From an uncultured Fibrobacteraceae bacterium (GTDB lineage: Bacteria; Krumholzibacteriota; Krumholzibacteriia; LZORAL124-64-63), in the NCBI GenBank assembly GCA_964343835.1, contig CAYFKR010000008.1, positions 64,318-128,317 of the forward strand: DNA of 64,000 nucleotides, in the 5' to 3' direction. How positions within the stretch are numbered: position 1 is the stretch's first letter; the number at the start of each line of letters is the position of its first letter. This document shows positions 4,863 through 53,431 of the stretch, piece by piece. A program made the position numbers and the translations under genes. The notes beneath the pieces were generated by a model. It was not told where the DNA came from. It searched no databases and worked only from the letters and a program-made list of their open reading frames with translations.

Positions 4863-5720
4863 TCAGCCGGCGCGAGCGGACATCTCGTCGTCGCCTTCGT
4901 CCACGTCCTCGAGGAGCGAGGTGAGACGATAGAGGTCGCTGAAAGCCTCGGCGCCGTGATCGACGGCCTGGTTCACGGCGTGCGACAGCACGTGGGCGGT
5001 GGCCAGGGCATCCTCGCCGGCGCGGTGCGGCCGGTCGTGGGTCACGGCGAAACTGTCGGCCAGGTCCTGCAGACGCCAGCCTCCGAGGTCGGGCCACAGC
5101 TGCTGGGACAGGCGGAGGGTGCAGAGTCCCGGCATCTCGGGCATGGCGTAGCCGTGACGCTGGAGTTCCCAGCCGAGGAAGTTCAGGTCGAAGCGCACGT
5201 CGTGGGCCACGAACGCGGAGCCTCCGCGCAACAGGTCCATGACGATGGGCGCGACGTCGGCGAACGACGGAGCGTCCTGCAGGTCACTGGGACGGATGCC
5301 GGTGAGGCGGCGGATGCGGCCGGAGATGGGGCGCTCGGTCTTGACGAGGCTGCTGAACGTCTGGGTCACGCGACCGCCCTCGAGGACGGCGATGCCCACC
5401 TCGATGATGCGGTCCACGCCGATCAGGCTGCCCGTGGTCTCCAGGTCCACAACCACGTAGCGCAGGTCGTCGATGTCGCGGTCCAGGAAACCGGCGTCCA
5501 GGGCGACCCAGCGGGCGTCGTGGGCACGGATCGCCGAGGGCTCGTCCTCCAGGATGTTGCGCACCACGAGCTGCGCCACCGGATCCTCGTGCCGGCCGGG
5601 ACCGAAGAGGTGGCGGGCGATCTCCTGGGACGTACAGCTACGGTCGGAACTCAGGAGGAAGCCGTGGGCGTCCGCCCTGAGCTGAGTCAGTTCGTTCGAA
5701 AGCATACCCAATGATAACAT
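4863..5720 (-). CDS. DnaQ-like 3'-5' exonuclease (DEDDh, epsilon-subunit family) with an N-terminal extension
   Basis: Exo I motif VVVDLETTG, Exo II FVAHDVRFD, Exo III HRAGEDALATAHV. Confidence 0.75.
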   Translation of the reverse strand: MLSLGMLSNELTQLRADAHGFLLSSDRSCTSQEIARHLFGPGRHEDPVAQLVVRNILEDEPSAIRAHDARWVALDAGFLDRDIDDLRYVVVDLETTGSLIGVDRIIEVGIAVLEGGRVTQTFSSLVKTERPISGRIRRLTGIRPSDLQDAPSFADVAPIVMDLLRGGSAFVAHDVRFDLNFLGWELQRHGYAMPEMPGLCTLRLSQQLWPDLGGWRLQDLADSFAVTHDRPHRAGEDALATAHVLSHAVNQAVDHGAEAFSDLYRLTSLLEDVDEGDDEMSARAG

Positions 5721-5736: not shown

Positions 5737-6561
5737 TCAACCCCCCGACCCGATGGGGGTTCGGCCGAAGGAGATCAGCTCCATGGTCTCGGCCTTCACC
5801 TGGGGCGGCGGCTGGCGGCGGCGACCCGGCGGATCCACCTCCGAACGGGTCTCGGCGCGCTCCACGGCATGGACCACGCCCAGGAACGGCACGGTGTCGT
5901 GGAGGGCGACGGTGACGGTCCGCACGTGGATCTGCAGGAGTCGTCCCCTCGGCAGATCGAGGGTCGTGGTGTCCCGGGACGACAGCGCCAGTCCGTCGCA
6001 CATCAGGGTCACGCCGTCCACCCAGCGGGTCGTGGGATCCAGGGGTTCGCGGTCGTCGGGCGTGAAGCCGCCGGACAGGGCCAGGGACAGCAGGGGATCC
6101 TCGCGCCATTCGCGATCGGGGATCGGGCGGTCGCGGCCGCCGTCGCGCCGGACCACGTCGGAGACCCGGTCCCGCAGGTCGGCGTCGCCGTCGCGGGCGA
6201 GGGTGAAGGTCCACACGCCGTCGTCCAGGACATGGAGACCGTCGCGGTCCTCGGCCACCGGGGCCACCTCGAGGCGCCAGGCGTCGCCGCCGGCGTCGAG
6301 GCAACGGATGCGCAGGACGTCGTCGGTGCGGCGTCCCGCCTCGAAGGCGGACATGCGGTAGATGGCCCAGTCGCCGTCCGCGACGACGGGCCCCCGCGCC
6401 GAGGCGTCCCAGAGGGTGAAGAGGTCGAGGGCCTGGGAAGGGGCCGGCCAGGCCAGGACGGCCAGGGACAATGCGAGCACGGCCGGTCCCCGGAGGGACC
6501 GGCCGGCGTTCGCGGGCCGTCGGGCCCGGTCAGTGTGCGATCTTCTGCCAGTATTCGTCAT
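5737..6561 (-). CDS. hypothetical secreted protein
   Basis: Signal-like LRGPAVLALSLAVLAWPAPSQA, then a D/R-rich soluble domain. Start uncertain (ATG at 6561 or internal GTG). Confidence 0.4.
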   Translation of the reverse strand: MTNTGRRSHTDRARRPANAGRSLRGPAVLALSLAVLAWPAPSQALDLFTLWDASARGPVVADGDWAIYRMSAFEAGRRTDDVLRIRCLDAGGDAWRLEVAPVAEDRDGLHVLDDGVWTFTLARDGDADLRDRVSDVVRRDGGRDRPIPDREWREDPLLSLALSGGFTPDDREPLDPTTRWVDGVTLMCDGLALSSRDTTTLDLPRGRLLQIHVRTVTVALHDTVPFLGVVHAVERAETRSEVDPPGRRRQPPPQVKAETMELISFGRTPIGSGG

Positions 6562-7870
6562 AGTCGAAGTCCGGGCTGTTCTCCTCGTCGTGGCACTGCG
6601 TGCAGCTCTCGCGGGCGGCGGCCAGCCAGTCGCCGCTGCGGTCGTGCTCGGTACCGTAGCCGTGGCAGGCCTCGCACTGCACGTTGGAGAGGCGGTTGCG
6701 CGGCGGGCGGTCGTCGTAGCCGCCCTTGTAGAGGTATCCGGTGGTGTGGCAGACCAGGCACTCGGGGCTCTGGGCCTGGCCCTTGCGCGCCAGGGTCGTG
6801 AACGCGGCCTGGTGGCCGGTGTCGCGCAGGGTCTCCCACACGTCCATGTGGCACTTGCGGCATTCGCGCTCGGTCAGGAACGACTCGTCGTCGGAACCCT
6901 TGGTGGGCTGGTAGGGCCCGCGGGAGGCCAGGCGGAAGTCCTCCAGGTGCACCTTGAAGTCGTTCACGCGCTGGAGCATGACCGGGTCGTCGGCCATGGT
7001 CTCACCCAGTTCGGTGACGGTCACGTCGAAGGCCTTCAGGTGGCCGTCGGTGGCCAGGTCCACGTCCATGCGACCCACGTTGCGGCCCTCGAAGGAGGAG
7101 CCGATCAGGCAGGTACGGTCCACCACGCGCTCGGTGCGGTAGGGGCGGCGGCTGTGACCCACCAGGCAGACGTCGATGCCCTTCACGTCGCGCAGCAGCT
7201 GCTCCACCTTGGTGTCGCCCACGTGAGCCAGCACGATGACGTTCTGGGCTCCCTCGGCACGCATGCGCGGGATGAGCTCGCGGAGGGTCTCCACGGGATC
7301 GCCGATGGTGTAGATCTCGTCCTTGGCGCTCATGGTGGTGATGCGCTGCTGGGGATCCATCACCGAGCAGATGCCGAAGGTGAAGCCGGCCCGGTCGACC
7401 ATCAGGTACTCGGGCAGGATCAACTCGCCCGCCTCGTTGCGCACGTTGGCGCTGGTGAAGGGCAGCGAGTAGGTGTCGATCATCTCGCGGAGATAATCGA
7501 TGCCGTAGTTCAGGTCCTTCTCGCCGAGGGCGATGGCGTCGTAGCCGAACTCGCTGTGGACCTCGCAGAGGAAACGGGTCTGCTCGCGCTCCATGCGCGT
7601 GCGGGGGCCGAACATGTCGCCGCCGTCGAGCATGAGCACGGGCTTGCCGGTGTTCCAGATCTCGTCGAGGATCAAGGCACGTCGGGGCAGACCGCCCCGC
7701 TTGTTGCTCTTTCAGCCACAGGGCTCGATCTTGCCCCCCACGTCGCCGGTGTAGACCATGATCATCTGGGTCCAGGGGCCGTCGTCGGCCTGGTCGGCGA
7801 GGGCCGTCGCGGCGGCCAGGAGAGTCGCCAGGGCCAGCAGGACCGCGACCGGCAGTACGGATCGTCGCAT
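6530..7870 (-). CDS. signal peptide / degenerate 5'-nucleotidase-type metallophosphatase domain / tetraheme cytochrome c fusion, with an in-frame TGA (candidate selenocysteine) at about 7711-7713
   Basis: One continuous minus-strand frame: MRRSVLPVAVLLALATLLAAATALA (signal) ...YTGDVGGKIEPCG-TGA-KSNKRGGLPRRALILDEIWNTGKPVLMLDGGDMFG...AIALGEKDLNYG...VIVLAHVGD...CLVGHSRRP... Then four heme motifs: CRKCH, CLVCH, CEACH, CTQCH. A cytochrome c requires export, so the signal peptide upstream of the TGA must belong to the same polypeptide. Coordinates may be off by about 1 nt relative to the ORF track. Confidence 0.6.
7682..7698 (-). other. SECIS-like hairpin 12 nt downstream of the in-frame UGA (CGGGGC-GGUCU-GCCCCG)
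   Basis: Perfect 6-bp GC stem with apical loop GGUCU. It mimics the GCA-GGUCU-GCA apical element of the E. coli fdhF SECIS, at the canonical spacing from the UGA. Confidence 0.5.
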
Positions 7871-7995
7871 ATCGTAGACTCCGTCGGAATCGGTTCGGAA
7901 GATGTGTCAGGGCCGCCGTTCTACGGCGTGGAGGCGGGTGGAGTTCCCGCCTCGCCTTTCATTATACCGCCGCGGCGGAACCCGGGCAAGACGCG

Positions 7996-8046: not shown

Positions 8047-8343
8047 CTACTTCTTGCCGACGCGGTCCTTGAGGGACTTGCCGGCCGAGAAGGCGGGGTA
8101 CTTGGTCGCCGGGATCATGATCTCGGCGCCGGTCTGGGGGTTGCGTGCCTTGCGCTTCTTGCGGTTGCGGCGCTCGAAGGTGCCGAAGCCCGTCAGCTGG
8201 ACCTTCTTCCCCTTCGCCACCTCGGTAGCGATGATGCCCTCGCGGGGCACGGTGGAGAAGATGGCGTTCACTGCGGACGAAGCATCCTTCTTCGTCATTC
8301 CGGTCTTCTTGACCAAGGCTTCGATGAGTTCGGTCTTGTTCAT
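8047..8343 (-). CDS. hup: HU-family DNA-binding protein
   Basis: [29 protein letters not shown]...[24 protein letters not shown]...; HU/IHF fold signature. Confidence 0.8.
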
Positions 8344-8490: not shown

Positions 8491-11400
8491 CTAGAAAAAG
8501 CCTCCGCCGGTGGATCCCATGCCCCCGCCGACGAGATCCTCACGTCCCTTGGTGACCTTGATGTCCGGGATCGCCTTCAACCGCACGACGAAACCGAACT
8601 GGGAATCCACCGAACTCACGGTGCGCTGGAAGCGCAGGGACCAGCAGTGCAGGTCCTTCTCCAGGCTCCACGACTGCTGCGACACGAGCCCCGTGTTCAG
8701 GTCGTAGCCGGACCGCCACGTGGCCTTCCAGGTGCGGGTCAGCGTAGCGCTGGCGCTGAGGGTCAGGCGCGCCGTGGTGTCGTCGGTGAGGTGGTTCCTG
8801 GAGAAACGGAGGCCGCCGCTGGCCCGCCAGGGGATGTAGCGGCCGCCCTCGGTCTCGTCGCGGCCGCCCTCGTCGGAGTCCTGGGTGAACTGGAGGGCGG
8901 GATCGTAGAGATCCCGTTCGCTGTCCTCGAACCCGTCGTCGAGCCACTCCTCATCCTCGTCCTCCCATTCGCCGTCGCCGAAGGGATCAGCGTCCGGGTC
9001 GGTTTCCTGGTCCAGGGAGTCGAGTTCGGCCAGGGCCGCGATGGCCTCATTGGTCTCGGGCTCGGGAACGACGATCTCGCCGCCCGTATCGATGCGACCC
9101 GAGACGCCGAGGTTGTAGTTGAAGCGCGTCGACGTGACGCGCATCTCGTACGGGTCGATGCTGCTGTTCACCGTGATCTGGGCGTTGCGGCTGCTGCCGG
9201 GCTTGAAGCGGAAGGTGCTCTGGATCGTGGACCAGCGGTCGTCCCGGTCCAGGTCCGGGTCGTAGCTCGTGCTCAGGTTCCAGTCGACGACGCCGTCCAG
9301 CTTCCGGAACGATTCGGTCGAGTCGGCGGACGCCTCGCCGTCGTCGGCGAATTTCAGGTCGATGCGGTTGCCCAGGGTGAAGCCGAAGCGCTGGTCCGCG
9401 GTCTGGGTGCCGCCGATCTCCGGTCGCCAGGAATGGCTCATGCTGAACTTCATGGTGTGGCGCATGCCGCGCAGCGACCCGATCCGCGGGTAGAAGAGGC
9501 CGTAGAGGGTGGTCGAGGCGCTGGAGTTCATGCCCAGACTCTTGGCGCTCTCCTCGACGAACTGGGTCGCGTCCGACAGGACGGTGTCGCCCTCGACGAC
9601 CTGGAAGAAGTCGCCGCTCCCCTCGTCGCGCTGCCAGTTGAAGCCCGCGCTCACGCCCGTCGACACGTTGAAGATCCACAGCCGCGGCGGCTTGATGCTC
9701 AGGGACAGGTTCCCGGACGCGTTGTCCTTGCGCAGGCTCGTGGTCTCCTTCTCGGTGCGGGTCGACGACGCCCTGTAGTTGTGGGACAGGTAGGTGTTGC
9801 GGAGCACGTTGCCCAGGAACGAGCCCTTCCTGCCGCCGCGCAGGGGCGGCATCAGCGCCCGGCTCTTGAACGACACGGAGAGTTGGGGGAAGTGCTGGGT
9901 CGAGACCAGGTTGTTGGTCAGGATGTTCTCGTCGCCGGCGTTGACGATCTCCTCGCGCTTGAAGGCCAGCGACCCGCTGAGGTTCTCCCAGTTTCGCCCG
10001 ATGCTCACGTTGGAGATCCGGCGCGGGTTCACGACCTGGGTGTAGTCGCCGAGCAGGTCCTCGCGCTCCACCGTGCTGCTGGACATCTTGAGGTCCGCGC
10101 TGAAGCGGTAGTCGTCCAGGAGCTGGGGCTGGTCGTGGCGCCACTGGAGCTGCCATTCCTTCGTCTGGGGACCGTTGCCCAGGGTCGTACGTCGCGAGTA
10201 GCGGACGCTGCCGTTGAAGGCGTCGCGGAGCACGTAGCGGTTGTTGATCTGCCAGGTGAGCTGGCGCCGCTCGTTGTAGTCGCCGAGGAACGAGAAATCG
10301 GTGTAGTCGTTGGTGGCCCAGTAGTAGCCCCAGTTGCGGATGTAACGGCCCGTGCGGCTGCCCCAGCCGGAGTCGAAGGTCGGAAAGTGGATTCCCGAAC
10401 GCCGGCCGGTCTCCAGGTTCTTGAAGTAGAAGGGCAGGGCCACCAGGGGCACCTCGCCGATCTTCATGACGATGGGCGCGGCCACCACCTTGTCGTCGAG
10501 CTGGATCTTCATCCTGTCGGCCCAGAAGTGGTAGTGGGGCTTGGACAGGTTGCAGGACGTCATGCGGCCGCCGCGGATCTTCAGGTCGCCGTCGCCGAAG
10601 CGCTTGATGTGCCGCCCCACGTAGAAGTACTCGTCCATGGTGGTGGCGCCGTCACGGACCGCGCCGGTGCGGTTGCCGAAGTCGTAGGCCATGTCCACGC
10701 CGGCGATCTTCTGGGCGCCGTCCACCAGCAGGGGCTGCTCCTCGGCATAGAGTTCTCGGGACTCGGTGTCCATGCGGATGTCGCCGGCCTTGAGGTCCAG
10801 GGTGCCGTACACGAGCTGCCCGTCGCCGCGGATGGCGATCTGACGCTTGCCGAGCTGAAAGATCCCCATGTCGCCGCTGTACTCCACGGTCTCGCGCAGG
10901 GAGGAGAAGTCGAGGCCGTCGCCGCCGGTGGTGTCGGCGGCGCCGAGGGCCAGGATCCGGCCGGCGGCCTCGGCCACGGCGCTGTCGCCCGCCGCGAACC
11001 CGCCCTCCGCCAGGGCGCCCAGCAGGACGAGGCCCATGGCCGGGTCCATCTCCGCGAGGCCGGAGCGGACGAGTTCCGGGTCGAGCGAAAGGGAGTCGGG
11101 AATCATGGCCGCCATGAGGGAGTCGGGACGGGCCGCCAGCAGGCTGTCCAGGGCCGCCACGGCCTCCTCGGCGGCCTCCTCCACCTCGTCCAGCCGCACG
11201 AAGGAATAGGTGCCCTTCATGGTCCCGCGCACGTCCACCTGGCGGATGCGGCGATCCTTGAAGCCGAGCACGATGGTGTCGCCCGAGACGTCGTTGTACG
11301 CCACCTCCTTGGCGGCTTCGGCGGGCACGTAGACGCTCCTCGCCCCGCCCACGACGAGGGAGCGCACGGGCTCGCCGTCGTCCATGTCCACGGTGATGGT

Positions 11401-12354
11401 GTCGCCGGTCAGGGTGTCGGTGTCGGGCAGGCCGCGGTACTGCGCGGCCAGTTCGGCGGGCTCCGTGTCCACCACGCTGGCGTCGCCCTCCAGTCGCACG
11501 CGCTTCATCTTCCCGTCCTCGTACCAGTACTCCACGGCCGAGGCGGAGAAGGTGCCGCCCTCCCCGTCGTCCATGACCGGGGGGCCGCCCGTGAGCCTCA
11601 TGCGCTCGCGGCCGAAGATGCGGGCGGTATCGGCCACCGCCACCGACTTGCCCTGGCGGATGCGGACGCTGTCCACCATCACCACGCGGTCGAGGTCGCG
11701 CAGGAAATCCATGACCCGCGCCTCGGCCAGCAGGGGGTCGGCGCCCTGGTCGCGGCTCTCCAGCAGGGGCTCGCGGTCCACGGTCATGCGGCCGCCGCCG
11801 CGGTCGAAGGTGGCGTGACCGCCCTTCACGACGCTGGCGGCCCCCGGCTCCACGAGGATCACGTTGCCCCATGCTTCGCCGGTGTCCGACTCCTCGTAGC
11901 TGGCGATGGAGTCGGCGTGGACCACGTAGTCGGGAGAGACCACCCGGGCATCGCGGATCAGCAGGAACATGTCGCCCTCGCGGCGCATCTCGGCGCGGCG
12001 GCTGGTGGCGATGCGGTCGGCGTCGACCAGGCGCACGTCGCCCTCGAAATCGGCGTCGCGGGTGCGGTCGTTGTAGAAGGCGGCGGCGCAGGTGAGGACG
12101 GCCTCGCCGCGGGTGGCGCGGACGTGGCCGAAGAAGTCGTACTCCTCGGTGTCCTCGTAGAAGAGGGCGGAGTCGGCGGCCACGGTCAGCGAATCGCGGA
12201 CGATCAGCACGTCGCCGTAGAGATGGGTCACGGGCTCGCCGTCGATGACGCGATGGACCATGCGCTCGGCCCGCGTGTCCACGACGGCGGGTTGCGCCGC
12301 CGCCAGGGAGGCGGCGAGCGTCATCGCGACGGCGATGCCGAAGAGGCCCCTCAT
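8491..12354 (-). CDS. very large outer-membrane protein, putative LptD/OstA-family (LPS-assembly) with internal acidic insertion
   Basis: Signal peptide MRGLFGIAVAMTLAASLAAAQ. N-terminal OstA-like beta-jellyroll repeats. Long C-terminal region rich in barrel-like alternating strands (W/Y/F, N/S/T). Acidic insertion DPDADPFGDGEWEDEDEEWLDDGFEDSERD. Confidence 0.4.
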   Translation of the reverse strand: MRGLFGIAVAMTLAASLAAAQPAVVDTRAERMVHRVIDGEPVTHLYGDVLIVRDSLTVAADSALFYEDTEEYDFFGHVRATRGEAVLTCAAAFYNDRTRDADFEGDVRLVDADRIATSRRAEMRREGDMFLLIRDARVVSPDYVVHADSIASYEESDTGEAWGNVILVEPGAASVVKGGHATFDRGGGRMTVDREPLLESRDQGADPLLAEARVMDFLRDLDRVVMVDSVRIRQGKSVAVADTARIFGRERMRLTGGPPVMDDGEGGTFSASAVEYWYEDGKMKRVRLEGDASVVDTEPAELAAQYRGLPDTDTLTGDTITVDMDDGEPVRSLVVGGARSVYVPAEAAKEVAYNDVSGDTIVLGFKDRRIRQVDVRGTMKGTYSFVRLDEVEEAAEEAVAALDSLLAARPDSLMAAMIPDSLSLDPELVRSGLAEMDPAMGLVLLGALAEGGFAAGDSAVAEAAGRILALGAADTTGGDGLDFSSLRETVEYSGDMGIFQLGKRQIAIRGDGQLVYGTLDLKAGDIRMDTESRELYAEEQPLLVDGAQKIAGVDMAYDFGNRTGAVRDGATTMDEYFYVGRHIKRFGDGDLKIRGGRMTSCNLSKPHYHFWADRMKIQLDDKVVAAPIVMKIGEVPLVALPFYFKNLETGRRSGIHFPTFDSGWGSRTGRYIRNWGYYWATNDYTDFSFLGDYNERRQLTWQINNRYVLRDAFNGSVRYSRRTTLGNGPQTKEWQLQWRHDQPQLLDDYRFSADLKMSSSTVEREDLLGDYTQVVNPRRISNVSIGRNWENLSGSLAFKREEIVNAGDENILTNNLVSTQHFPQLSVSFKSRALMPPLRGGRKGSFLGNVLRNTYLSHNYRASSTRTEKETTSLRKDNASGNLSLSIKPPRLWIFNVSTGVSAGFNWQRDEGSGDFFQVVEGDTVLSDATQFVEESAKSLGMNSSASTTLYGLFYPRIGSLRGMRHTMKFSMSHSWRPEIGGTQTADQRFGFTLGNRIDLKFADDGEASADSTESFRKLDGVVDWNLSTSYDPDLDRDDRWSTIQSTFRFKPGSSRNAQITVNSSIDPYEMRVTSTRFNYNLGVSGRIDTGGEIVVPEPETNEAIAALAELDSLDQETDPDADPFGDGEWEDEDEEWLDDGFEDSERDLYDPALQFTQDSDEGGRDETEGGRYIPWRASGGLRFSRNHLTDDTTARLTLSASATLTRTWKATWRSGYDLNTGLVSQQSWSLEKDLHCWSLRFQRTVSSVDSQFGFVVRLKAIPDIKVTKGREDLVGGGMGSTGGGFF

Positions 12355-17504: not shown

Positions 17505-19058
17505 CTAGCGGGGCTTCATCACCACGAACGGCACGATCATCTCCTCCATGCTGATGCCCCCGTGCTGGAAGCTGTTGCGATAGAGACGCTCGTACTCGTG
17601 GAAGTTGGTGGGGTAGACGAGGTAGTCGTTCCCCGTGGTGATGGCGTAGTTCTCGATGGCCGACTGGCGCGGCAGCATGTAGTCCTCGGGATCCTTCATC
17701 AGGAACACGTGCTTTTCGTCCACGCCCAGGTTGTCGCCGTACTTGTAGCGCACGTTGGTGCTGGTCTCGCGGTTGGCCTTGACCGTCGTGGCGCGATCAC
17801 AGAACACGGAGCCGTGGTCCGTGGTGATGATCACCGTGCAGTCGCGGCGGGCGAGGGTCTTGAGCACGTCGAACAGGTTCGAATGCTCGAACCAGCTGCG
17901 CATCAGGGAGCGGAAGGCCGGCACGTCGGGCGCCAGTTCCTTGAGGATGGTGGACTGGGACCGACCGTGGGCCATGATGTCCAGGAAGTTGTAGACCGCA
18001 GCCACCAGGCGCACGTCGTCCAGGGAGCCCACGTTACGGCTCAGGTCGTCGGTGTCCCGGGCATCGAAGACCTTGTAGTACTTGTAACTGTCGGCGGCCG
18101 GCGATCCCAGGCGCTTGAGCTGTTCGCCCAGCAGTTCGGCCTCGTGGGCGTTCTTGGAGTGCTGCTGACGGCTCGAGCCTCGCCACCAGTCGGGATAGCG
18201 CGACGCGATCTCGCGGGGGTACAGCCCGCTGAACAGTGCGTTGCGGGCGAAGGGCGTGGCCGAGGGCAGGATGGACCAGTAGTGGCGGCGGTCCAGGTGG
18301 TAGAAGGGTTCCAGCAGGCTTTCCACGAAGCGCCACTGATCCAGCCTCATGCAGTCGATGACGATCCAGAAGAGCTGGCTCGAGCCCTCCACCTCGGGTG
18401 CGACCCAGGTGCGGAAGAGATCGGGGCTGAGCAGGGGCGCGCCGTCGGCTCCGTTGACCCAGCCGGCGTAGTTCTCACGGACGTGGCGCACGAAGGCACG
18501 ATTGGCCTCGGCGTGCATCTCGTCGTGGCTGGCCAGCAGGCCGTGGTCGCCGTCGGCGAAGAGATCCAGCTCCCACTGCACGAGGTCGTTGTACAGGGAC
18601 TCCCAGTCGGCCACGCCGGCGGCGGTGCCGATGCGGTCCTGGGTGGCCATGAAGTGGCTCGTGAAGTCGCGGCTGAGCTGCTCGCCGCGGATGCGGCGGC
18701 CCTCCAGCAGGCGCTTCAGGGCCGAGACGATCTGCAGGGGCGACACCGGCTTGACGAGGTAGTCGTCGATGCGCTTGCCGATGGCGCGGTTCATGAGGTC
18801 CTCTTCCTCGCTCTTGGTGATCATGATCACCGGCACCGACTCGCGGACCTTCTTGAGCTCGGCGAGGGTCTCGAGGCCCGTCATGCCGGGCATCATCTCG
18901 TCCAGGAGGATGGCGTCGTAGGGCGTGCCCCGGAGCTTCTCCACGGCGTCCTGCCCGTTGGTCACGCCGTCCACCTCGTAGCCCTTGTCGCCGAGGTACA
19001 CGAGGTGGGAGCGGAGCTCCTCGATCTGGTCGTCAACCCACAGGATCTTGAAGGCCAC
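17505..19058 (-). CDS. porX: PorX-like response regulator: CheY-like receiver + PglZ (alkaline-phosphatase-superfamily) domain
   Basis: Receiver KILWVDDQ...DAILLDEMMPGMTGLE...LVKP. C-terminal PglZ-type domain (...IITTDHGSVF...). Length 517 aa, matching PorX (about 518 aa). Confidence 0.65.
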   Translation of the reverse strand: MAFKILWVDDQIEELRSHLVYLGDKGYEVDGVTNGQDAVEKLRGTPYDAILLDEMMPGMTGLETLAELKKVRESVPVIMITKSEEEDLMNRAIGKRIDDYLVKPVSPLQIVSALKRLLEGRRIRGEQLSRDFTSHFMATQDRIGTAAGVADWESLYNDLVQWELDLFADGDHGLLASHDEMHAEANRAFVRHVRENYAGWVNGADGAPLLSPDLFRTWVAPEVEGSSQLFWIVIDCMRLDQWRFVESLLEPFYHLDRRHYWSILPSATPFARNALFSGLYPREIASRYPDWWRGSSRQQHSKNAHEAELLGEQLKRLGSPAADSYKYYKVFDARDTDDLSRNVGSLDDVRLVAAVYNFLDIMAHGRSQSTILKELAPDVPAFRSLMRSWFEHSNLFDVLKTLARRDCTVIITTDHGSVFCDRATTVKANRETSTNVRYKYGDNLGVDEKHVFLMKDPEDYMLPRQSAIENYAITTGNDYLVYPTNFHEYERLYRNSFQHGGISMEEMIVPFVVMKPR

Positions 19059-20301
19059 GCTGGGGCTCCTCTCCGGGAATCGTGATCAGGAAGGTGGTGC
19101 CGCCGGGACCGGTCTCCTCCACGGAGATCCGCCCGGCGTGATACTGCACGACGATGCGCCGCACGAGTGCGAGGCCCATGCCCCAGCCGCGCGACTTGGT
19201 GGTGAACCCGGGCTCGAAGATCCGGTTCCGCTTGCCGGGCGCGATGCCGCCGCCCGTGTCGCGGACGCGGATGCGGACCGAGCCGCCGGGGCCGTCGTCC
19301 AGGATCACGTCGATGCGGCCGCTGCGGTCCTTGAGGGCGTCGATGCCGTTCTTGATGAGGTTCTCCAGCACCCATTCCATCAGGTCGCGGTTATAGCGGC
19401 AACGGCGCGAGGTCCGACAGTCGCACACCAGCTCCACGCGCCCGCCCAGATGGGGCAGCCGACGCTCGAAATAGGCCACGCTGGAGCGCACGGCGTCGGC
19501 GATGTCCGTATCCTGGAGCTGGGGCTTCGATCCGATCTGGCTGAAGCGCTCGCTCACCTTGCCCAGGCGCTTCACGTCGCGGTCCAGCTCCGTGACGATC
19601 TCGTCGTCGCCGTGACGGTCGTTGAGCACGGCCACCCAGCCCAGGATCGCCGTGATGGGCGTGCCCAGCTGGTGGGCCGTCTCCTTGGCCATGCCCGCGA
19701 AGAGGCGCTGCTCCTCGCCGTCGCGTTTGACGCTCAGGGCCCAGGCGATGGCCAGGAAGAACACGCCCAGCAGGGCCAGCTCCGCCCAGGGCAGCCAGCG
19801 GATCTGGCGCCCCACCGCCGAGTGCCCGTAGTGGAGGGTCAGCATGCGCTGCCCCGTCGACGGGCTGGTGATGGCGAAGGGCTCGTTGATGGCGTCGAAC
19901 TCGTCGACCAGCTCCAGGATACGGTCGATCTCCGGGGAGTTGCCCCCCTCGGGGTTCACTCCCAGCAGCGTGAGCTGCTGGTCGGGCATGGGGATGCCCA
20001 CCACCGGGCCGTTCCACAGCAGCGGCCGCCCCTGGTTGTCGGTCACGATGAAGGGGACCTCGAGCCGCCGCGTCTTGTCCATGACGTCGCGCAGCACGTC
20101 GTTCTCGCCCTGGCCGAGGGACATGCTCGCGAAGTGGGAAAGCAGCCACGTGCTGAGCCGCGACTGCTCCTCCACGCGGTCGGCCACCCGGAAGGAGATG
20201 GCCCCCACCGAGAACACGATGACGGCGGTCCCACCCAGGACGAAGGCCGCGAAGAGCTGACGCTTGCGGACGAAGTTGAGCGTCCGGGGCCACCAGGTCA
20301 T
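19033..20301 (-). CDS. sensor histidine kinase (two TM segments, periplasmic loop; HisKA + HATPase), cognate partner of the PorX-like regulator
   Basis: H-box HQLGTPITAILGW, N-box ENLIKNGIDAL, G-boxes DTGGGI / GWGMGLALV. TM helices flank a periplasmic segment of about 140 aa. 26-nt overlap with the response-regulator gene. Confidence 0.75.
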   Translation of the reverse strand: MTWWPRTLNFVRKRQLFAAFVLGGTAVIVFSVGAISFRVADRVEEQSRLSTWLLSHFASMSLGQGENDVLRDVMDKTRRLEVPFIVTDNQGRPLLWNGPVVGIPMPDQQLTLLGVNPEGGNSPEIDRILELVDEFDAINEPFAITSPSTGQRMLTLHYGHSAVGRQIRWLPWAELALLGVFFLAIAWALSVKRDGEEQRLFAGMAKETAHQLGTPITAILGWVAVLNDRHGDDEIVTELDRDVKRLGKVSERFSQIGSKPQLQDTDIADAVRSSVAYFERRLPHLGGRVELVCDCRTSRRCRYNRDLMEWVLENLIKNGIDALKDRSGRIDVILDDGPGGSVRIRVRDTGGGIAPGKRNRIFEPGFTTKSRGWGMGLALVRRIVVQYHAGRISVEETGPGGTTFLITIPGEEPQRGLQDPVG

Positions 20302-43693: not shown

Positions 43694-43981
43694 TCACGGA
43701 GTGTTCGACGTCGCCACGCGGTCCTTCAGCATCTTGGAGACCTTGAAGATGGGGACCTTGCGGGCCGGAACGGGCACGGCCTCCCCGGTGCGGGGATTGC
43801 GCGCCATCCGTTCCTTGCGCTCCTTCACCTTGAAGGTGCCGAAACCGCGGATCTCCAGATGATGACCGTCTTCGAGGAGCTTGCTGATCTCCTCCAGGAA
43901 GAGGTCGACGGTCTCGCCCACTTCCTTCTTCGTCAGCCCGGTCTTCTGGGCGATATCCTCTACGATATCAGCCTTGGTCAT
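43694..43981 (-). CDS. HU/IHF-family DNA-binding protein (second copy)
   Basis: MTKADIVEDIAQKTGLTKKEVGETVDLF...GFGTFKVKERKERMARNPRTGE. Confidence 0.7.
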   Translation of the reverse strand: MTKADIVEDIAQKTGLTKKEVGETVDLFLEEISKLLEDGHHLEIRGFGTFKVKERKERMARNPRTGEAVPVPARKVPIFKVSKMLKDRVATSNTP

Positions 43982-44396
43982 GACACACCCCTTTCTTGGA
44001 CCGGCCGTCCAATTTGTCACGATCCCTAGGGCTTCCAATCCCGATCGTCCCGTATAACTCCTGCTCTGTCAAGGACATTCTCGCCCGGCGGCCGTTCAGA
44101 GGCAGAATGCACGGCCGGACTGCCGGCATTTCGCAAGATCGGGGCAGCGCGAGGCCCCACGAGGCATCACCGGGAACGGCGGGGCATCACCCGGCCGATG
44201 GCGTTGCGCCCTAACCCCATGATCATGAACACCTTGCAGTACCGGCCCCTATCCACAGCACACCGTGGCACCCCCCTTGCAGTCCCCCGGTCGTACGAGC
44301 CGCTGACCATGCACAGTTCGACGTGCGACAACCCTTGGCATGGCTTTCGACTTCGGCTCCGACATCTTCGTCAAGGAGGAAGACTGGTGACTGGCA

Positions 44397-50385: not shown

Positions 50386-52113
50386 CTACGGAGTCTCCAC
50401 GTCGAGGTACGGGATGCAGAGGTACGGCGCCTGCTCCTGGCCGGGCCTCTCCACCCAGCGGTCGTCGATGGACGCCCGCACCGGGGAGTGGGCCTTGATG
50501 TAGGCCTCGAAGGCCTCAGCCGTGGTGATCTGGGTCAGTTCGATGCGGTCGGCCGGGATCGTGGTCAGGAAGTCCAGGCCGCTGTTGCCCTCCATGAGGA
50601 AGGAGGTGCAGACCACCCGGTATTCCTTCTCGAGATCCAGGGGCTCGCCGTTGACGAGCAGGGCGCAGCAGCGGTCCCAGTCGGGGCGGCTGCGGTCGAA
50701 GACCACCTGCAGGCCCGAGGTGCACAGGCCGCCCGAGTTGCCCCGGACCTTCCGCTCCACGATGCGGCGGATCATGGAGCCCTTCATGGTCACGAGCACC
50801 AGCTCGTTGCCGAAGGGCAGCACGCTGAAGACGTCGCGGGCGGTGATGTCGCCGGCCGGGACGTCGGCGCGCAGGCCGCCGGTGTTCTGGAACGAGAAGT
50901 CGGCGTCGAAGTGGGCGCGCATGGCGTCGGTCACGAGGTTCCCCATGACGCTGTTGGCCCCGCCGCGGGTCAGGTTGACCGACGCGGAACCGATGACGCG
51001 GCCCATCTCGGCCTCGGTCATCTCGATGTACGGGCGCAGGGCCTCGGTCATCTCCTCGTGGGGCCAGAGCTCGTCCTCGAAGAGGGTGACCAGGGTGCCG
51101 CGGTCGTGGGGACCGGCCCAGTCGATGATCGTGCCGCTGTCGCGGTGGATCGTGAGGATGGCGTGGCCCACGCTCGAACCGTTGCCGTAGCTCTCGAAGC
51201 ACATGGTGTGGTTCACGGGGTCGATCCAGGGCTCCGGATAGCCGCGATGGGTGTGGCCGCCCACGGCGAAGTCGATGCCCGACACCGCGTTGACCAGCTC
51301 CATGAGGTTCATGACGCCGGACTGGACGTAGCCGTAGCCGCCGCCCGCGTCGCCCTGGGTGTCCTCGGCCTCGGCCTGGCTGCCCACGATGCGGGCCCAG
51401 CCGGCATCGGGGTCGTAGGGCAGGCCCTCGTGGATCAGCAGGCCCACGATGTCCACGCCGTCGGCCCGGAGCTCGTCGCGCCAGTGCTCGATGGTCGGGG
51501 CCATGGGCTCGAACGACAGGCCCCGGATGTTGTCCGGGAACGCCATGTGCTCGGTGGCCGGCGTGCAGATGCCGATCAGGCCGAGGCGCAGGCCGCCCAC
51601 GTCGAACTCGATGGTTGGCTCGCACCAGTCCACCACCTCGCCCGTGGACTCCTCCACGATGTTGGCGCAGATCCACGGCGCGTCGGTGGAGCGGGCCAGC
51701 TTCTCGCAGTTGTCACGGCCCATGTCGAAGTCGTGGTTGCCGGGCACGATGGCGTCGTAGCCGATGGTGTTGAAGAACTCCACCACCGCCTCGCCCTTGG
51801 TCTTGGTGCCCACCGGCGTGCCCTGGAAGGTGTCGCCGGCGTCCAGGAGCATCACGTACTCCCCGGCCGCGGCGGCCCTCTCGCGCACCTCCTCCACGTA
51901 GGTCATCATGGATGCGCCGCCGCCCAGGGGGGGCGGGAAGGCGGGGTTCATGAAGCGCGCCATCTCGGGCGCGATGTGGCCGTGGACGTCGTTGGTCCAC
52001 ATCAGGTGCAGGGTCACCATGCCGTCGTCGTCGGCTGCCGCGGCTCCCGTCGCCCCGAGGACGACGAGGGCCAGGGCCAGCAGGACGGCGCGTGTTCCGT
52101 TCATGGTTCTCAT
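50386..52113 (-). CDS. secreted bifunctional-type 5'-nucleotidase / metallophosphatase (UshA-like)
   Basis: Signal peptide MRTMNGTRAVLLALALVVLGATGAAAA. Intact motifs NDVHGH, DAGDTFQG, GNHDFD, GGHTHRGY, plus the C-terminal nucleotide-binding domain. ATG at 52113 after GGAGGAGAC. Confidence 0.8.
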   Translation of the reverse strand: MRTMNGTRAVLLALALVVLGATGAAAADDDGMVTLHLMWTNDVHGHIAPEMARFMNPAFPPPLGGGASMMTYVEEVRERAAAAGEYVMLLDAGDTFQGTPVGTKTKGEAVVEFFNTIGYDAIVPGNHDFDMGRDNCEKLARSTDAPWICANIVEESTGEVVDWCEPTIEFDVGGLRLGLIGICTPATEHMAFPDNIRGLSFEPMAPTIEHWRDELRADGVDIVGLLIHEGLPYDPDAGWARIVGSQAEAEDTQGDAGGGYGYVQSGVMNLMELVNAVSGIDFAVGGHTHRGYPEPWIDPVNHTMCFESYGNGSSVGHAILTIHRDSGTIIDWAGPHDRGTLVTLFEDELWPHEEMTEALRPYIEMTEAEMGRVIGSASVNLTRGGANSVMGNLVTDAMRAHFDADFSFQNTGGLRADVPAGDITARDVFSVLPFGNELVLVTMKGSMIRRIVERKVRGNSGGLCTSGLQVVFDRSRPDWDRCCALLVNGEPLDLEKEYRVVCTSFLMEGNSGLDFLTTIPADRIELTQITTAEAFEAYIKAHSPVRASIDDRWVERPGQEQAPYLCIPYLDVETP

Positions 52114-52147
52114 GGTCTCCTCCCGGATCGTCGGTCCGACGACCAAT

Positions 52148-53431
52148 CTAGAACCGATAGATGAAGGTCGCACCCAGGCGGAAGCGGTTGTCCTCCACGC
52201 GGGCCGTGGGCACGGTCTCGAAGTCCTCGGGGTACGGGAACCAGTGCTCCTGCACCGAGGAGACCTTGCCCAGCTGGGCCGAGACGTCGAACATGCCGCC
52301 GCCGTAGGGCATGCCGATGCCGGCGGAGAACAGGCTCGCCGAGGCCTCGGTGTCCGCATACAGGTCGAAGTGGCGGAAGCCGAAGCGCACGGGCATGCCA
52401 TTGTAGAACACGTGCTCCACGCCCACACGGTAGTCGCGGGTGTTCTCGTCGAAGACCTTCGTGCCGTCGTCCTCGAACTGGGTCCACTCGGTCCAGACCA
52501 TCTCCAAGGTCACGACCGTGCGGGGCTCGGAACGGGGGTGATAGGCCAGGCCCATGCGGTACTGCTTGGGGTACGAGAACGTGCGGCCGACGGTCTCCCC
52601 CACCGGGTTCGCCAGGTCGGCGCCGGAGGCGGTGACGGTCTCCAGGTCGCCCTCGATGTCCACGGCCGTCTCGACCGAGGCGCCCAGGGTGAAGCGCTCG
52701 TCGGCCTCCACCAGGATGCCCGCCGTCCAGCCGAAGCCGTCGGCGTCGAGGGTCGAGTCCATGCTGTAGGTGTCGCCGGGGTTCTCGAAGACGCGCCTGT
52801 TGACGGCCCCCTCGAGGTCGGTGAACAGGTAGTGGGCCGTCAGACCCAGGCTCACCCGCTCGTTCAGGGCGTAGCCCGCGCCCAGGGCCAGGTCGCGCAG
52901 GGCGCCCGACGAGGACAGGGAACGCTCCTCCAGAATGCGGTCGCGGGGGTCGGAGAAGGAATCCGGGTCCCGCACCTGCTCCTCGAAGTCGTAGGCGAAG
53001 TCGTAGCGCTCGGTGAGCGACAGGCCGAGGCCGAAGCCCTCGCCGAAACTCCTCGCCACGGCGAAGCCGGCGTCGAGGTAGTGATGGCGGTTGCTGGCGA
53101 TGGCCGTGTCGGTGACGTAGCTGCCGAAGCTGTCGAAGAGGGGCTGGAAGCGGTCCTCGTGGTCCTGGGCCAGGGCCGCGCCGGCGTCCAGGCGCCAGGC
53201 GCCCGCCGCCGACAGGGTGGCCGGGTTGAGGACCGTGCCGAAGCCGCCGCGGTCGGCGGCCACGCCGGTGCCGCCCAGCGCGGCGATCTCTCCGCTGAGC
53301 CAGACGTCCGCCGAGCCGTAGCCGGGAGCGTCCACCGCCGAGCCCGCCCACGCGGCCGACGCCGCCGTCAGCAGGAGCGCGGCGAGGGCCGCGGTCCCGA
53401 TCCGGCTCGTGTATCGCTTGTTCTGCGTCAT
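52148..53431 (-). CDS. FadL/PorV-like outer-membrane beta-barrel protein
   Basis: Signal peptide. N-terminal NPA motif (GTVLNPATL). Amphipathic beta-strand pattern. C-terminal aromatic ending ...FIYRF. Confidence 0.5.
   Translation of the reverse strand: MTQNKRYTSRIGTAALAALLLTAASAAWAGSAVDAPGYGSADVWLSGEIAALGGTGVAADRGGFGTVLNPATLSAAGAWRLDAGAALAQDHEDRFQPLFDSFGSYVTDTAIASNRHHYLDAGFAVARSFGEGFGLGLSLTERYDFAYDFEEQVRDPDSFSDPRDRILEERSLSSSGALRDLALGAGYALNERVSLGLTAHYLFTDLEGAVNRRVFENPGDTYSMDSTLDADGFGWTAGILVEADERFTLGASVETAVDIEGDLETVTASGADLANPVGETVGRTFSYPKQYRMGLAYHPRSEPRTVVTLEMVWTEWTQFEDDGTKVFDENTRDYRVGVEHVFYNGMPVRFGFRHFDLYADTEASASLFSAGIGMPYGGGMFDVSAQLGKVSSVQEHWFPYPEDFETVPTARVEDNRFRLGATFIYRF

Follow-up and report, generated by a model that had tools for sequence, protein, structure and literature searches.

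A minus-strand gene with one in-frame UGA very probably encodes an exported tetraheme selenoprotein of the UshA-like family

The window, the whole 64-kb stretch of DNA that was analysed, contains a 446-codon frame on the minus strand, which runs from an ATG at 7870-7868 to its own stop TGA at 6532-6530 in the sequence and its translation. Codon 53 of this frame, a TGA at 7714-7712, is its sole internal stop and lies within ...GKIEPCG-U-KSNKRGGLPRRA. The N-terminus of the protein reads MRRSVLPVAVLLALATLLAAATALA, followed by DQ, and resembles a Sec-type signal peptide. An earlier note on this DNA had described an uninterrupted exported frame with a single TGA break, and both were borne out by the sequence and translation. 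Its position for the TGA (about 7711-7713) was one base off, and the TTG start that it placed 27 nt past the TGA actually lies 36 nt past it (TTG 7675-7673). The features of the locus, all on the minus strand, are listed below.

6530..7870, minus strand: predicted complete coding sequence of the selenoprotein, with the UGA-Sec as codon 53 (NF041198 match, 1e-75, 255.2 bits)
7879..7882, minus strand: GGAG, a Shine-Dalgarno-like element 8 nt 5' of the ATG at 7868-7870 (sequence reading)
7796..7870, minus strand: predicted Sec-type signal peptide, residues 1-25 (...ATALA/DQ), judged by eye from the translation
7712..7714, minus strand: in-frame TGA, probably read as selenocysteine (Sec; U53), in the P-C-G-U motif (73-homologue alignment)
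7683..7699, minus strand: candidate SECIS stem-loop CGGGGC/GGUCU/GCCCCG with a 6-bp GC stem, 12 nt past the TGA
6956..7768, minus strand: domain of the 5'-nucleotidase/SoxB-type metallophosphatase fold with degenerate ligands, about residues 35-305 (profiles, alignment, AF2/Foldseek)
6533..6883, minus strand: cytochrome c554-like tetraheme domain, about residues 330-446 (PF13435, 42.8 bits against a cut-off of 20.8)
6848-6862, 6746-6760, 6662-6676 and 6590-6604, minus strand: CxxCH motifs CRKCH, CLVCH, CEACH and CTQCH
6530..7675, minus strand: truncated TTG-start ORF of 381 aa without a signal peptide, 100% identical to P0001 (NCBI/ENA)
5737..6480, minus strand: downstream gene, likely to start with the GTG at 6480, whose product is a secreted hypothetical protein; possible operon partner

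A screen of the whole window revealed no credible in-frame TGA site other than codon 53. TGA is the commonest stop codon here and terminates 33 of the 49 window genes, including this one, and a genome-wide reassignment of UGA was therefore ruled out. The same abundance of TGA stops would suit a true stop at codon 53, with the locus then representing a pseudogene, an error of assembly or sequencing, or a pair of genes for a 52-aa peptide and a 381-aa cytochrome; gene callers yield precisely this split. We regard a true stop as scarcely credible. The frame and its coding signal continue past the TGA, with coding-like GC3 both upstream and downstream of 7712-7714. The 381-aa product would begin inside a conserved domain and would have no signal peptide, although it needs heme attachment in the periplasm. 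The comparative data in effect already refute a true stop; 56 independent assemblies, drawn from several phyla, have a TGA at this very codon, and 17 others have Cys there.

These comparative data come from a genome scan that found the family in at least 493 species-level genomes, in Krumholzibacteriota, Eisenbacteria, Thermodesulfobacteriota, Nitrospinota, Planctomycetota, and other phyla. Codons and residues were counted in 73 aligned full-length homologous genes from many phyla. The codon aligned to the window TGA was TGA in 56/73 genes and Cys in 17/73, which answers the question raised in the earlier note, whether homologues carry Cys or U at this position, with Cys or TGA in every case. 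Gly52 and Sec/Cys53 were invariant (73/73), and Pro50 and Cys51 were found in 67/73 and 68/73 homologues, respectively. The P-C-G-U/C motif lies on the loop past the first beta-strand and D-x-H, and it is present in the window protein as EPCGU. The family shows Sec/Cys alternation at this single aligned column. Judging from the alignment, the in-frame TGA is clearly non-random, and selenocysteine is the strongly supported best reading of codon 53, as had been proposed. The proposal of one exported protein rather than two genes was likewise supported by the frame and the 73 homologues. The window locus is thus very probably a genuine gene in which selenocysteine is encoded, its product being an exported four-heme protein, and we give a probability of about 0.9 to the reading that it is a single gene for an exported selenoprotein of the NF041198 family, split by gene callers at the Sec codon. 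The Cys-Gly-Sec triad, put forward earlier as a possible selenenylsulfide pair, is present in the window protein. The pairing itself is weaker, because Cys51 is replaced by Ala or Val in 5/73 homologues, thereby indicating that a selenenylsulfide is not essential family-wide.

The predicted hairpin CGGGGC-GGUCU-GCCCCG, 12 nt 3' of the TGA, was found at 7699-7683. Its GGUCU loop (7689-7693) occupies nt 22-26 counted from the U of the UGA. This hairpin had been described as a copy of the E. coli fdhF SECIS, and the comparison was made on the real E. coli K-12 gene. The loop sequence and register agree, with GGUCUG at nt 22-27 from the U of the UGA in both genes, a stem that begins at nt 15-16, and G23 and U24 of the fdhF-type apical loop in matching register. 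The likeness does not extend to the bulged U17, which is absent from the perfect 6-bp GC stem of the window. Taken alone, the window hairpin showed a fold z-score of -0.63, and an equally stable hairpin arose in 38% of synonymous recodings under the codon usage of the window and in 75% under the gene's own codon usage. An Rfam scan of positions 7560-7800, with E values up to 10, returned chance matches only, without a SECIS model. Because the single-sequence significance tests failed, the hairpin alone was rejected as proof of a SECIS.

Among the homologues, every one of the 56 Sec genes carried a stem-loop in one of two registers, and all 56 shared the spacing U-x5-GG. Compensatory changes were observed at the pairs 27-39, 25-41, and 24-42. 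Close relatives retain the window hairpin, with a single change from G-C to G-U; most relatives use a register other than that of fdhF, in which the loop at nt 32-34 is GGA or GGC. In 10 of the 11 genes that have the hairpin register of the window, U24 comes from the rare Gly codon GGT, against 2.2 expected. The median hairpin energy was -11.6 kcal/mol for Sec genes and -5.7 kcal/mol for Cys genes (P = 8e-5, Mann-Whitney test), in a comparison that ignores kinship and is partly confounded by GC content, and the difference persisted against gene-specific synonymous recoding (P = 0.014). On this sequence evidence, UGA codon 53 would be decoded as Sec by means of a SelB-dependent stem-loop that starts 12 nt 3' of it.

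The UGA might also be read through without selenocysteine, by a near-cognate tRNA (Cys or Trp) or by a lineage-specific suppressor in a host without Sec machinery. This explanation agrees with the lack of significance of the window hairpin alone and with the search for the machinery, in which neither the 64-kb window nor about 1.2 Mb of homologous flanks yielded selA, selB, selD, or tRNA-Sec. With ARAGORN, the window gave no tRNA, and 60 related loci gave no tRNA-Sec. Sec machinery was likewise absent from the Pfam annotation of 48 window genes and from tblastn searches in which E. coli SelA, SelB, and SelD were compared with the window and 1.2 Mb of related loci. The single SelB match, in locus L076, covered the N-terminal 252 residues only, with 32% identity, and was taken as another translation GTPase. 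Read-through by another tRNA is nevertheless very unlikely. An invariant site that alternates between U and Cys is the standard hallmark of Sec, the conserved stem-loops with their compensatory changes and selected U24 point to SelB-type recoding, and the family is curated as selenoproteins (PMC13188914).

The assignment to this family came from the NCBIfam model NF041198, 'UshA-like (seleno)protein' (UshA_like_PCGU), whose short name refers to the P-C-G-U motif. The window protein, queried with C in place of U, matched it in two stretches with 255.2 bits (E = 1.1e-75), 20 bits short of the curated equivalog cut-off of 275 bits. The related sequences L066, L036, L026, L025, and L058 exceeded this cut-off with 281-473 bits. 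Positions 2-519 of the 519 in the model aligned to L066 (472.8 bits), heme domain included, and positions 348-519 matched the heme domains of L047 and L061. The window protein has the two-domain architecture of the model, with a 5'-nucleotidase-like N-terminal domain and a multiheme c C-terminal domain. The earlier claim that this architecture is not a described family therefore fails, since NF041198 models both domains end to end. The family is listed, as UshA-like (COG0737, motif CxU), among the prokaryotic selenoprotein families of Zhang and Gladyshev in 2008 (PMC2398784), and it also appears in reviews of 2022 and 2026 (PMC9312934, PMC13188914). Because the family is already catalogued as selenoproteins, the window protein is no new protein type; it is a slightly divergent, unannotated member, and the finding reveals no new kind of system.

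The window protein resembles other NF041198 members in the matching place of P-C-G-U, the presence of both domains, and the Sec/Cys alternation, and it shares the register of the post-UGA stem-loop with deltaproteobacterial members. In contrast, it has 446 aa against the 519 positions of the model, being shorter because the long linker of the model sequences is missing, and its clade, probably Krumholzibacteriia, has its own LptD-HU synteny. A second NCBIfam model, NF049981 ('UshA-like (seleno)protein family 2'), also describes a 5'-nucleotidase-like selenoprotein and gave a weak N-terminal match (1.8e-8), but it has the motif CxxU and 262 positions, and the window protein scored 34 against its cut-off of 140. 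A literature search found no functional study of the UshA-like family, and the 2007 paper on the Olavius symbionts does not mention it.

The fold of the N-terminal domain was examined with an AF2 model built on the full-length Cys homologue P0053, which is 49% identical to the window protein. Foldseek matched this model to 5'-nucleotidases and SoxB (E about 1e-21); the model is without hemes, its heme domain is of low confidence, and its CGC loop has a pLDDT below 50. In an alignment to the Thermus 5'-nucleotidase 2z1a, D-x-H is changed to D-V-G, GNHE to GEKD, and GHSH to GHSR, and the degeneracy of the phosphatase ligands described in the earlier note is real. Instead of the complete dimetal set (D-x-H, G-D, G-N-H-[ED], H, and G-H-x-H), the window protein has D-V-G, G-D, G-E-K-D, H, and G-H-S-R. 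Compared with UshA, CD73, and SoxB, the fold and motif order are kept, together with D(I), D(II), H(IV), and the first H(V), whereas substitutions affect the H of D-x-H, both N and H in GNHE, and the second H in GHxH. The window protein further differs from these enzymes in its added Sec/Cys, its heme fusion, and its lack of PF02872, the C-terminal substrate-binding domain of 5'-nucleotidases, to which it gave no match. A canonical 5'-nucleotidase elsewhere in the window, at 50389-52428, does carry PF02872.

Much of the dimetal phosphatase site thus appears to have been lost. The protein could conceivably have kept a functional metal centre and act as a phosphoesterase or a SoxB-type sulfate thiohydrolase, with the Sec/Cys and the hemes in accessory or regulatory roles. 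The window clade retains D43, D85, E117, H216, and H239, the intact equivalents of the second metal site and the bridging Asp; the fold fits both enzyme types, and SoxB (TIGR04486) was the second-best NCBIfam match. We consider such an activity unlikely. The first metal site is missing two of its ligands, GNHE has lost its catalytic His, the nucleotide-binding PF02872 is absent, and the SoxB match reached 79.4 bits against a cut-off of 550. In addition, the metal-ligand positions vary within the family, being conserved in only 42-54 of the 73 homologues (58-74%), whereas the Sec/Cys is invariant.

The C-terminal domain contains four CxxCH heme sites, as had been noted, and matches the c554 structure 1bvb in the PDB (8e-7). 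All four CxxCH and the three residues H353, H409, and H446 are invariant among the homologues. Cytochrome c554 has three bis-His hemes and one five-coordinate heme. The Nitrosomonas protein (PF13435; 1bvb, 1ft5) shares the four CxxCH with the window domain, in which the presence of just three further invariant His fits this heme pattern; the Nitrosomonas protein is a free electron carrier, whereas the window version is the C-terminal domain of a larger enzyme-like protein. Because four CxxCH are accompanied by three further invariant His only, the invariant Sec/Cys, rather than being a free redox residue, could serve as the distal ligand, or as the substrate-binding partner, of the heme without an invariant distal His. 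This arrangement is improbable; if true, it would represent a Sec-ligated or Sec-adjacent catalytic c-heme.

According to known c-type cytochrome biology, the protein would be exported through its signal peptide and would then receive its four c-type hemes in the periplasm. The invariant Gly-Sec/Cys, on the loop past the first metal-binding motif, may form a redox-active or nucleophilic centre, and the c554-like tetraheme domain may link this centre to a periplasmic electron-transfer chain. Our best inference is that the members of the family are periplasmic redox enzymes in which a Sec/Cys centre is wired to hemes. With its remodelled phosphatase fold and an invariant Sec/Cys connected to four hemes, the family is a sensible choice for biochemical work.

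The gene neighbourhoods were also considered. The product of the downstream gene at 5737..6480 had no Pfam match, and a homologous ORF abuts or overlaps the selenoprotein gene in at least 13 loci and likewise in close relatives. In 10 Cys-type loci (Nitrospinota and Nitrospirota-type MAGs), the gene immediately downstream is DsbA-like, and two other loci have a MauE/DoxX gene on the upstream side. In other phyla, the neighbouring genes thus suggest thiol, disulfide, or sulfur chemistry. It is also conceivable, though improbable, that the family acts in the periplasm as a thiol oxidase or reductase, wired to its hemes and paired with DsbA-like proteins; if so, the conserved place of the gene beside lptD in the Krumholzibacteriia-like lineage would tie it to envelope biogenesis.

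The chief value of the finding lies in annotation, as gene calls in the window lineage break this gene at its Sec codon and the NF041198 model narrowly misses the window clade. A slightly lower NF041198 cut-off or a clade-specific model would be expected to recover hundreds of selenoprotein genes. The protein database has the window gene only as the 381-aa truncated ORF, and its relatives are named 'multiheme c-type cytochrome' in GenBank. Among the 120 closest database proteins, 118 were N-terminally truncated right past the Sec site, and both of the full-length proteins (P0053 and P0102) read CGC at that site.

The probable selenoprotein gene spans 446 codons of a single frame at 7870-6530, on the minus strand. 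Sequence and translation agree with the organization first described for it: an ATG start with GGAG 8 nt upstream, a typical signal peptide (MRRSVLPVAVLLALATLLAAATALA, with predicted cleavage before DQ), a 5'-nucleotidase-like region and four CxxCH motifs at the end. The sole interruption of the frame is a TGA at 7712-7714 (codon 53), in the context ...GKIEPCG-U-KSNKRGGLPRRA..., and this is the only credible in-frame TGA within the 64-kb window. GC3 was 0.92 both upstream and downstream of the TGA, indicating that coding continues across it. Genome-wide reassignment of UGA was ruled out because TGA terminates 33 of the 49 window genes, including the selenoprotein gene itself. The gene-caller ORF begins at a TTG located 36 nt past the TGA, not 27 nt as first counted, and the database form of the gene (P0001; 381 aa, 100% identical) is this truncated ORF.

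The homologues were examined at two levels. Among the 120 best database matches (47-100% identical to the window protein), 118 begin just past the TGA position, with query coverage of about 79-87%, as expected if those genes too were split at TGA. The two full-length proteins, P0053 and P0102, carry C-G-C at the Sec site. A one-genome-per-species scan gave at least 493 relatives, from which 80 loci were kept, labeled as Krumholzibacteriia, Eisenbacteria, Thermodesulfobacteriota and other Deltaproteobacteria, Nitrospinota, Planctomycetota, Acidobacteriota, and others; 73 full-length genes were translated across stops and aligned. The best genome match among those listed was locus L002 (70% identity), which together with the shared gene order assigns the window to Krumholzibacteriia or a near relation. 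The codon at the Sec column was TGA in 56 genes and Cys in 17, and Gly52 and Sec/Cys53 were invariant (73/73). Judged from the alignment, this distribution at an invariant column is a classical Sec/Cys signature. A sequencing error, a pseudogene and two separate genes, the last raised in the earlier note, were ruled out by this signature. The selenoprotein reading of the window gene is very probably right (probability of about 0.9).

Pro50 was present in 67 and Cys51 in 68 of the 73 aligned genes, with Cys51 replaced by Ala or Val in the remaining five. In one subclade (L047, L050, L052, L053, and L060), the motif is A-G-U or V-G-U, so that the Cys of the proposed selenenylsulfide pair can be dispensed with there. 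Paralogues were found in tandem or nearby at four loci (L046, L051, L057, and L069). Locus L051 has two copies (3866 and 8067), one with CGU and the other with CGC, and L046, L069, and L057 have a second 5'-nucleotidase-like ORF just upstream, apparently without the N-terminal part. The homologue at L023 (7885-9342) is apparently frameshifted around the Sec region, reflecting a pseudogene or an assembly error.

In addition, we searched for the Sec machinery. No tRNA was found within the 64-kb window, and no SelA, SelB, or SelD domain was found in the 48 of its genes that were annotated. A tblastn search with E. coli SelA, SelB, and SelD against the window and 1.2 Mb of related loci returned nothing but a partial N-terminal match to SelB at L076, which was taken as another translation GTPase. 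The negative result weighs little because the window covers 64 kb of the genome.

The hairpin CGGGGC-GGUCU-GCCCCG (7699-7683) lies 12 nt after the TGA and folds with 6 bp, as originally proposed. Taken alone, it is unremarkable: its z-score was -0.63 against dinucleotide shuffles, and 38% (window codon usage) or 75% (the gene's own usage) of synonymous recodings of the same peptide were equally stable. Coding for the conserved peptide RGGL(A/P)RRA in a genome of 69% GC in itself favors hairpins, and an Rfam search returned no model matching the hairpin region. The comparative evidence for a putative SECIS, drawn from the aligned genes, is better than the single-sequence evidence. The spacing U-x5-GG is common to all 56 Sec genes, and nearly all of them fold into a stem-loop that takes either of two registers (nucleotides counted from the U of UGA). 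Register A, found at 40 loci, has a GGA or GGC loop at nt 32-34 and compensatory changes at pairs 27-39, 25-41, and 24-42. Register B, with a G(G)UCU loop at about nt 22-26, occurs in the window gene, its three closest relatives, and deltaproteobacterial members. Hairpins after TGA were more stable than those after Cys codons (median, -11.6 versus -5.7 kcal/mol; P = 8e-5, uncorrected for phylogeny). It persisted when each gene was set against synonymous recodings of its own (median empirical P, 0.175 for Sec versus 0.43 for Cys; Mann-Whitney P = 0.014, likewise uncorrected). Of the 11 register-B genes, 10 have GGT as the second Gly codon, versus an expectation of 2.2; GGT accounts for 8% of Gly codons in the window. 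The T of this codon is U24, a position that in the E. coli fdhF SECIS belongs to the loop bases contacted by SelB. Checked against the real fdhF gene, the supposed copy of its SECIS held for the loop (GGUCUG at nt 22-27 in both genes) but not for the bulged U17, which is absent from the window hairpin. Over nt 1-48 after the UGA (L002-L081), the window clade shares its register with the deltaproteobacterial members and not with its nearest sister group (L002), and the register switch coincides with a change from Ala to Pro or Ser in GGL(A/P/S)RRA.

The best NCBIfam match of the window protein was NF041198, "UshA-like (seleno)protein" (UshA_like_PCGU; E = 1.1e-75), at 255.2 bits, below the cutoff of 275 bits. 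The P-C-G-U of the family's short name is the motif of the window protein. The architecture had been thought undescribed; it is that of NF041198 itself, because the deltaproteobacterial homologue L066, with its CxxCH domain, aligns to positions 2-519 of the 519-position model (472.8 bits). In other homologues, the heme domain is matched by model positions 348-519. The family is listed as "COG0737, UshA-like, CxU" in the Global Ocean Sampling selenoproteome (PMC2398784), as UshA-like in a 2022 review (PMC9312934), and under NF041198 in a 2026 review (PMC13188914). The literature search found no functional study of it. The window gene is a slightly divergent, misannotated member of a known, curated selenoprotein family, and novelty is unsupported.

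The N-domain aligns with 5'-nucleotidases. Compared with Thermus 5'-nucleotidase 2z1a, the window protein has D-V-G for D-x-H, GEKD for GNHE, and GHSR for GHSH; it keeps the Asp of GD, the His of motif IV, and the first His of motif V. The suggested partial degeneracy of the metal ligands is real. Mapped on the canonical dimetal site, the second metal site is largely intact and two His are missing from the first. The C-G-U loop immediately follows the first motif. Only 42-54 of the 73 family sequences retain the residues at these ligand positions, whereas Gly-Sec/Cys never varies; hydrolysis of phosphoesters by a dimetal center is therefore unlikely to be the common function of the family. For the Cys homologue P0053, an AlphaFold2 model had pLDDT above 90 over most of the N-domain, and with it Foldseek retrieved 5'-nucleotidases, CD73, and SoxB (E of about 1e-21); the CGC loop (pLDDT < 50) and the heme domain were poorly modeled. 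A canonical 5'-nucleotidase (Metallophos and 5_nucleotid_C, 680 aa) is encoded at 50389-52428 (minus strand), so the organism has a conventional enzyme beside the degenerate Sec paralogue. The C-domain scored above the Pfam threshold for cytochrome c554. All four CxxCH motifs and another three His residues (H353, H409, and H446) are invariant, the pattern of c554, in which three hemes are bis-His ligated and one is five-coordinate.

The genes flanking the selenoprotein gene in the window are as follows.

8491-12354, minus strand, lptD
8047-8343, minus strand, HU gene
5737-6480, minus strand, secreted hypothetical protein
4863-5720, minus strand, RNase T-like exonuclease

This order is shared by the window and up to 33 related loci (lptD upstream in 33, HU in 29) and is kept down to about 30% identity, the close-relative loci L082-L085 being among them. 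It appears to be lineage synteny with housekeeping genes and offers no clear clue to function. Even at E = 1, Pfam gave no match for the downstream secreted protein (247-279 aa). In 10 Cys-type loci (L039, L042, L045, L056, L059, L061, L063, L074, L077, and L079; MAG labels Nitrospinota, Nitrospirae/Thermodesulfovibrionia [Nitrospirota-type], and Thermodesulfobacteriota), a DsbA-like CxxC thioredoxin-fold gene lies 12-121 nt downstream. L040 and L055 instead have a MauE/DoxX membrane protein gene upstream. Together with the invariant Sec/Cys and the wiring to hemes, these neighborhoods lead us to favor a putative redox role in the periplasm, in thiol, selenol, or sulfur chemistry. At L057, a 766-aa CxxCH-containing protein is encoded 41 nt downstream; it resembles a NapC/NirT-type multiheme cytochrome and may be a link to quinol-coupled electron transfer. 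Elsewhere in the window, a second HU-family gene (114 aa) lies at 43694-44038 (minus strand), and a response-regulator/PglZ fusion adjoins a histidine kinase (17505-19058 and 19033-20301, minus strand); the PglZ protein also occurs in the close relatives L082-L084.
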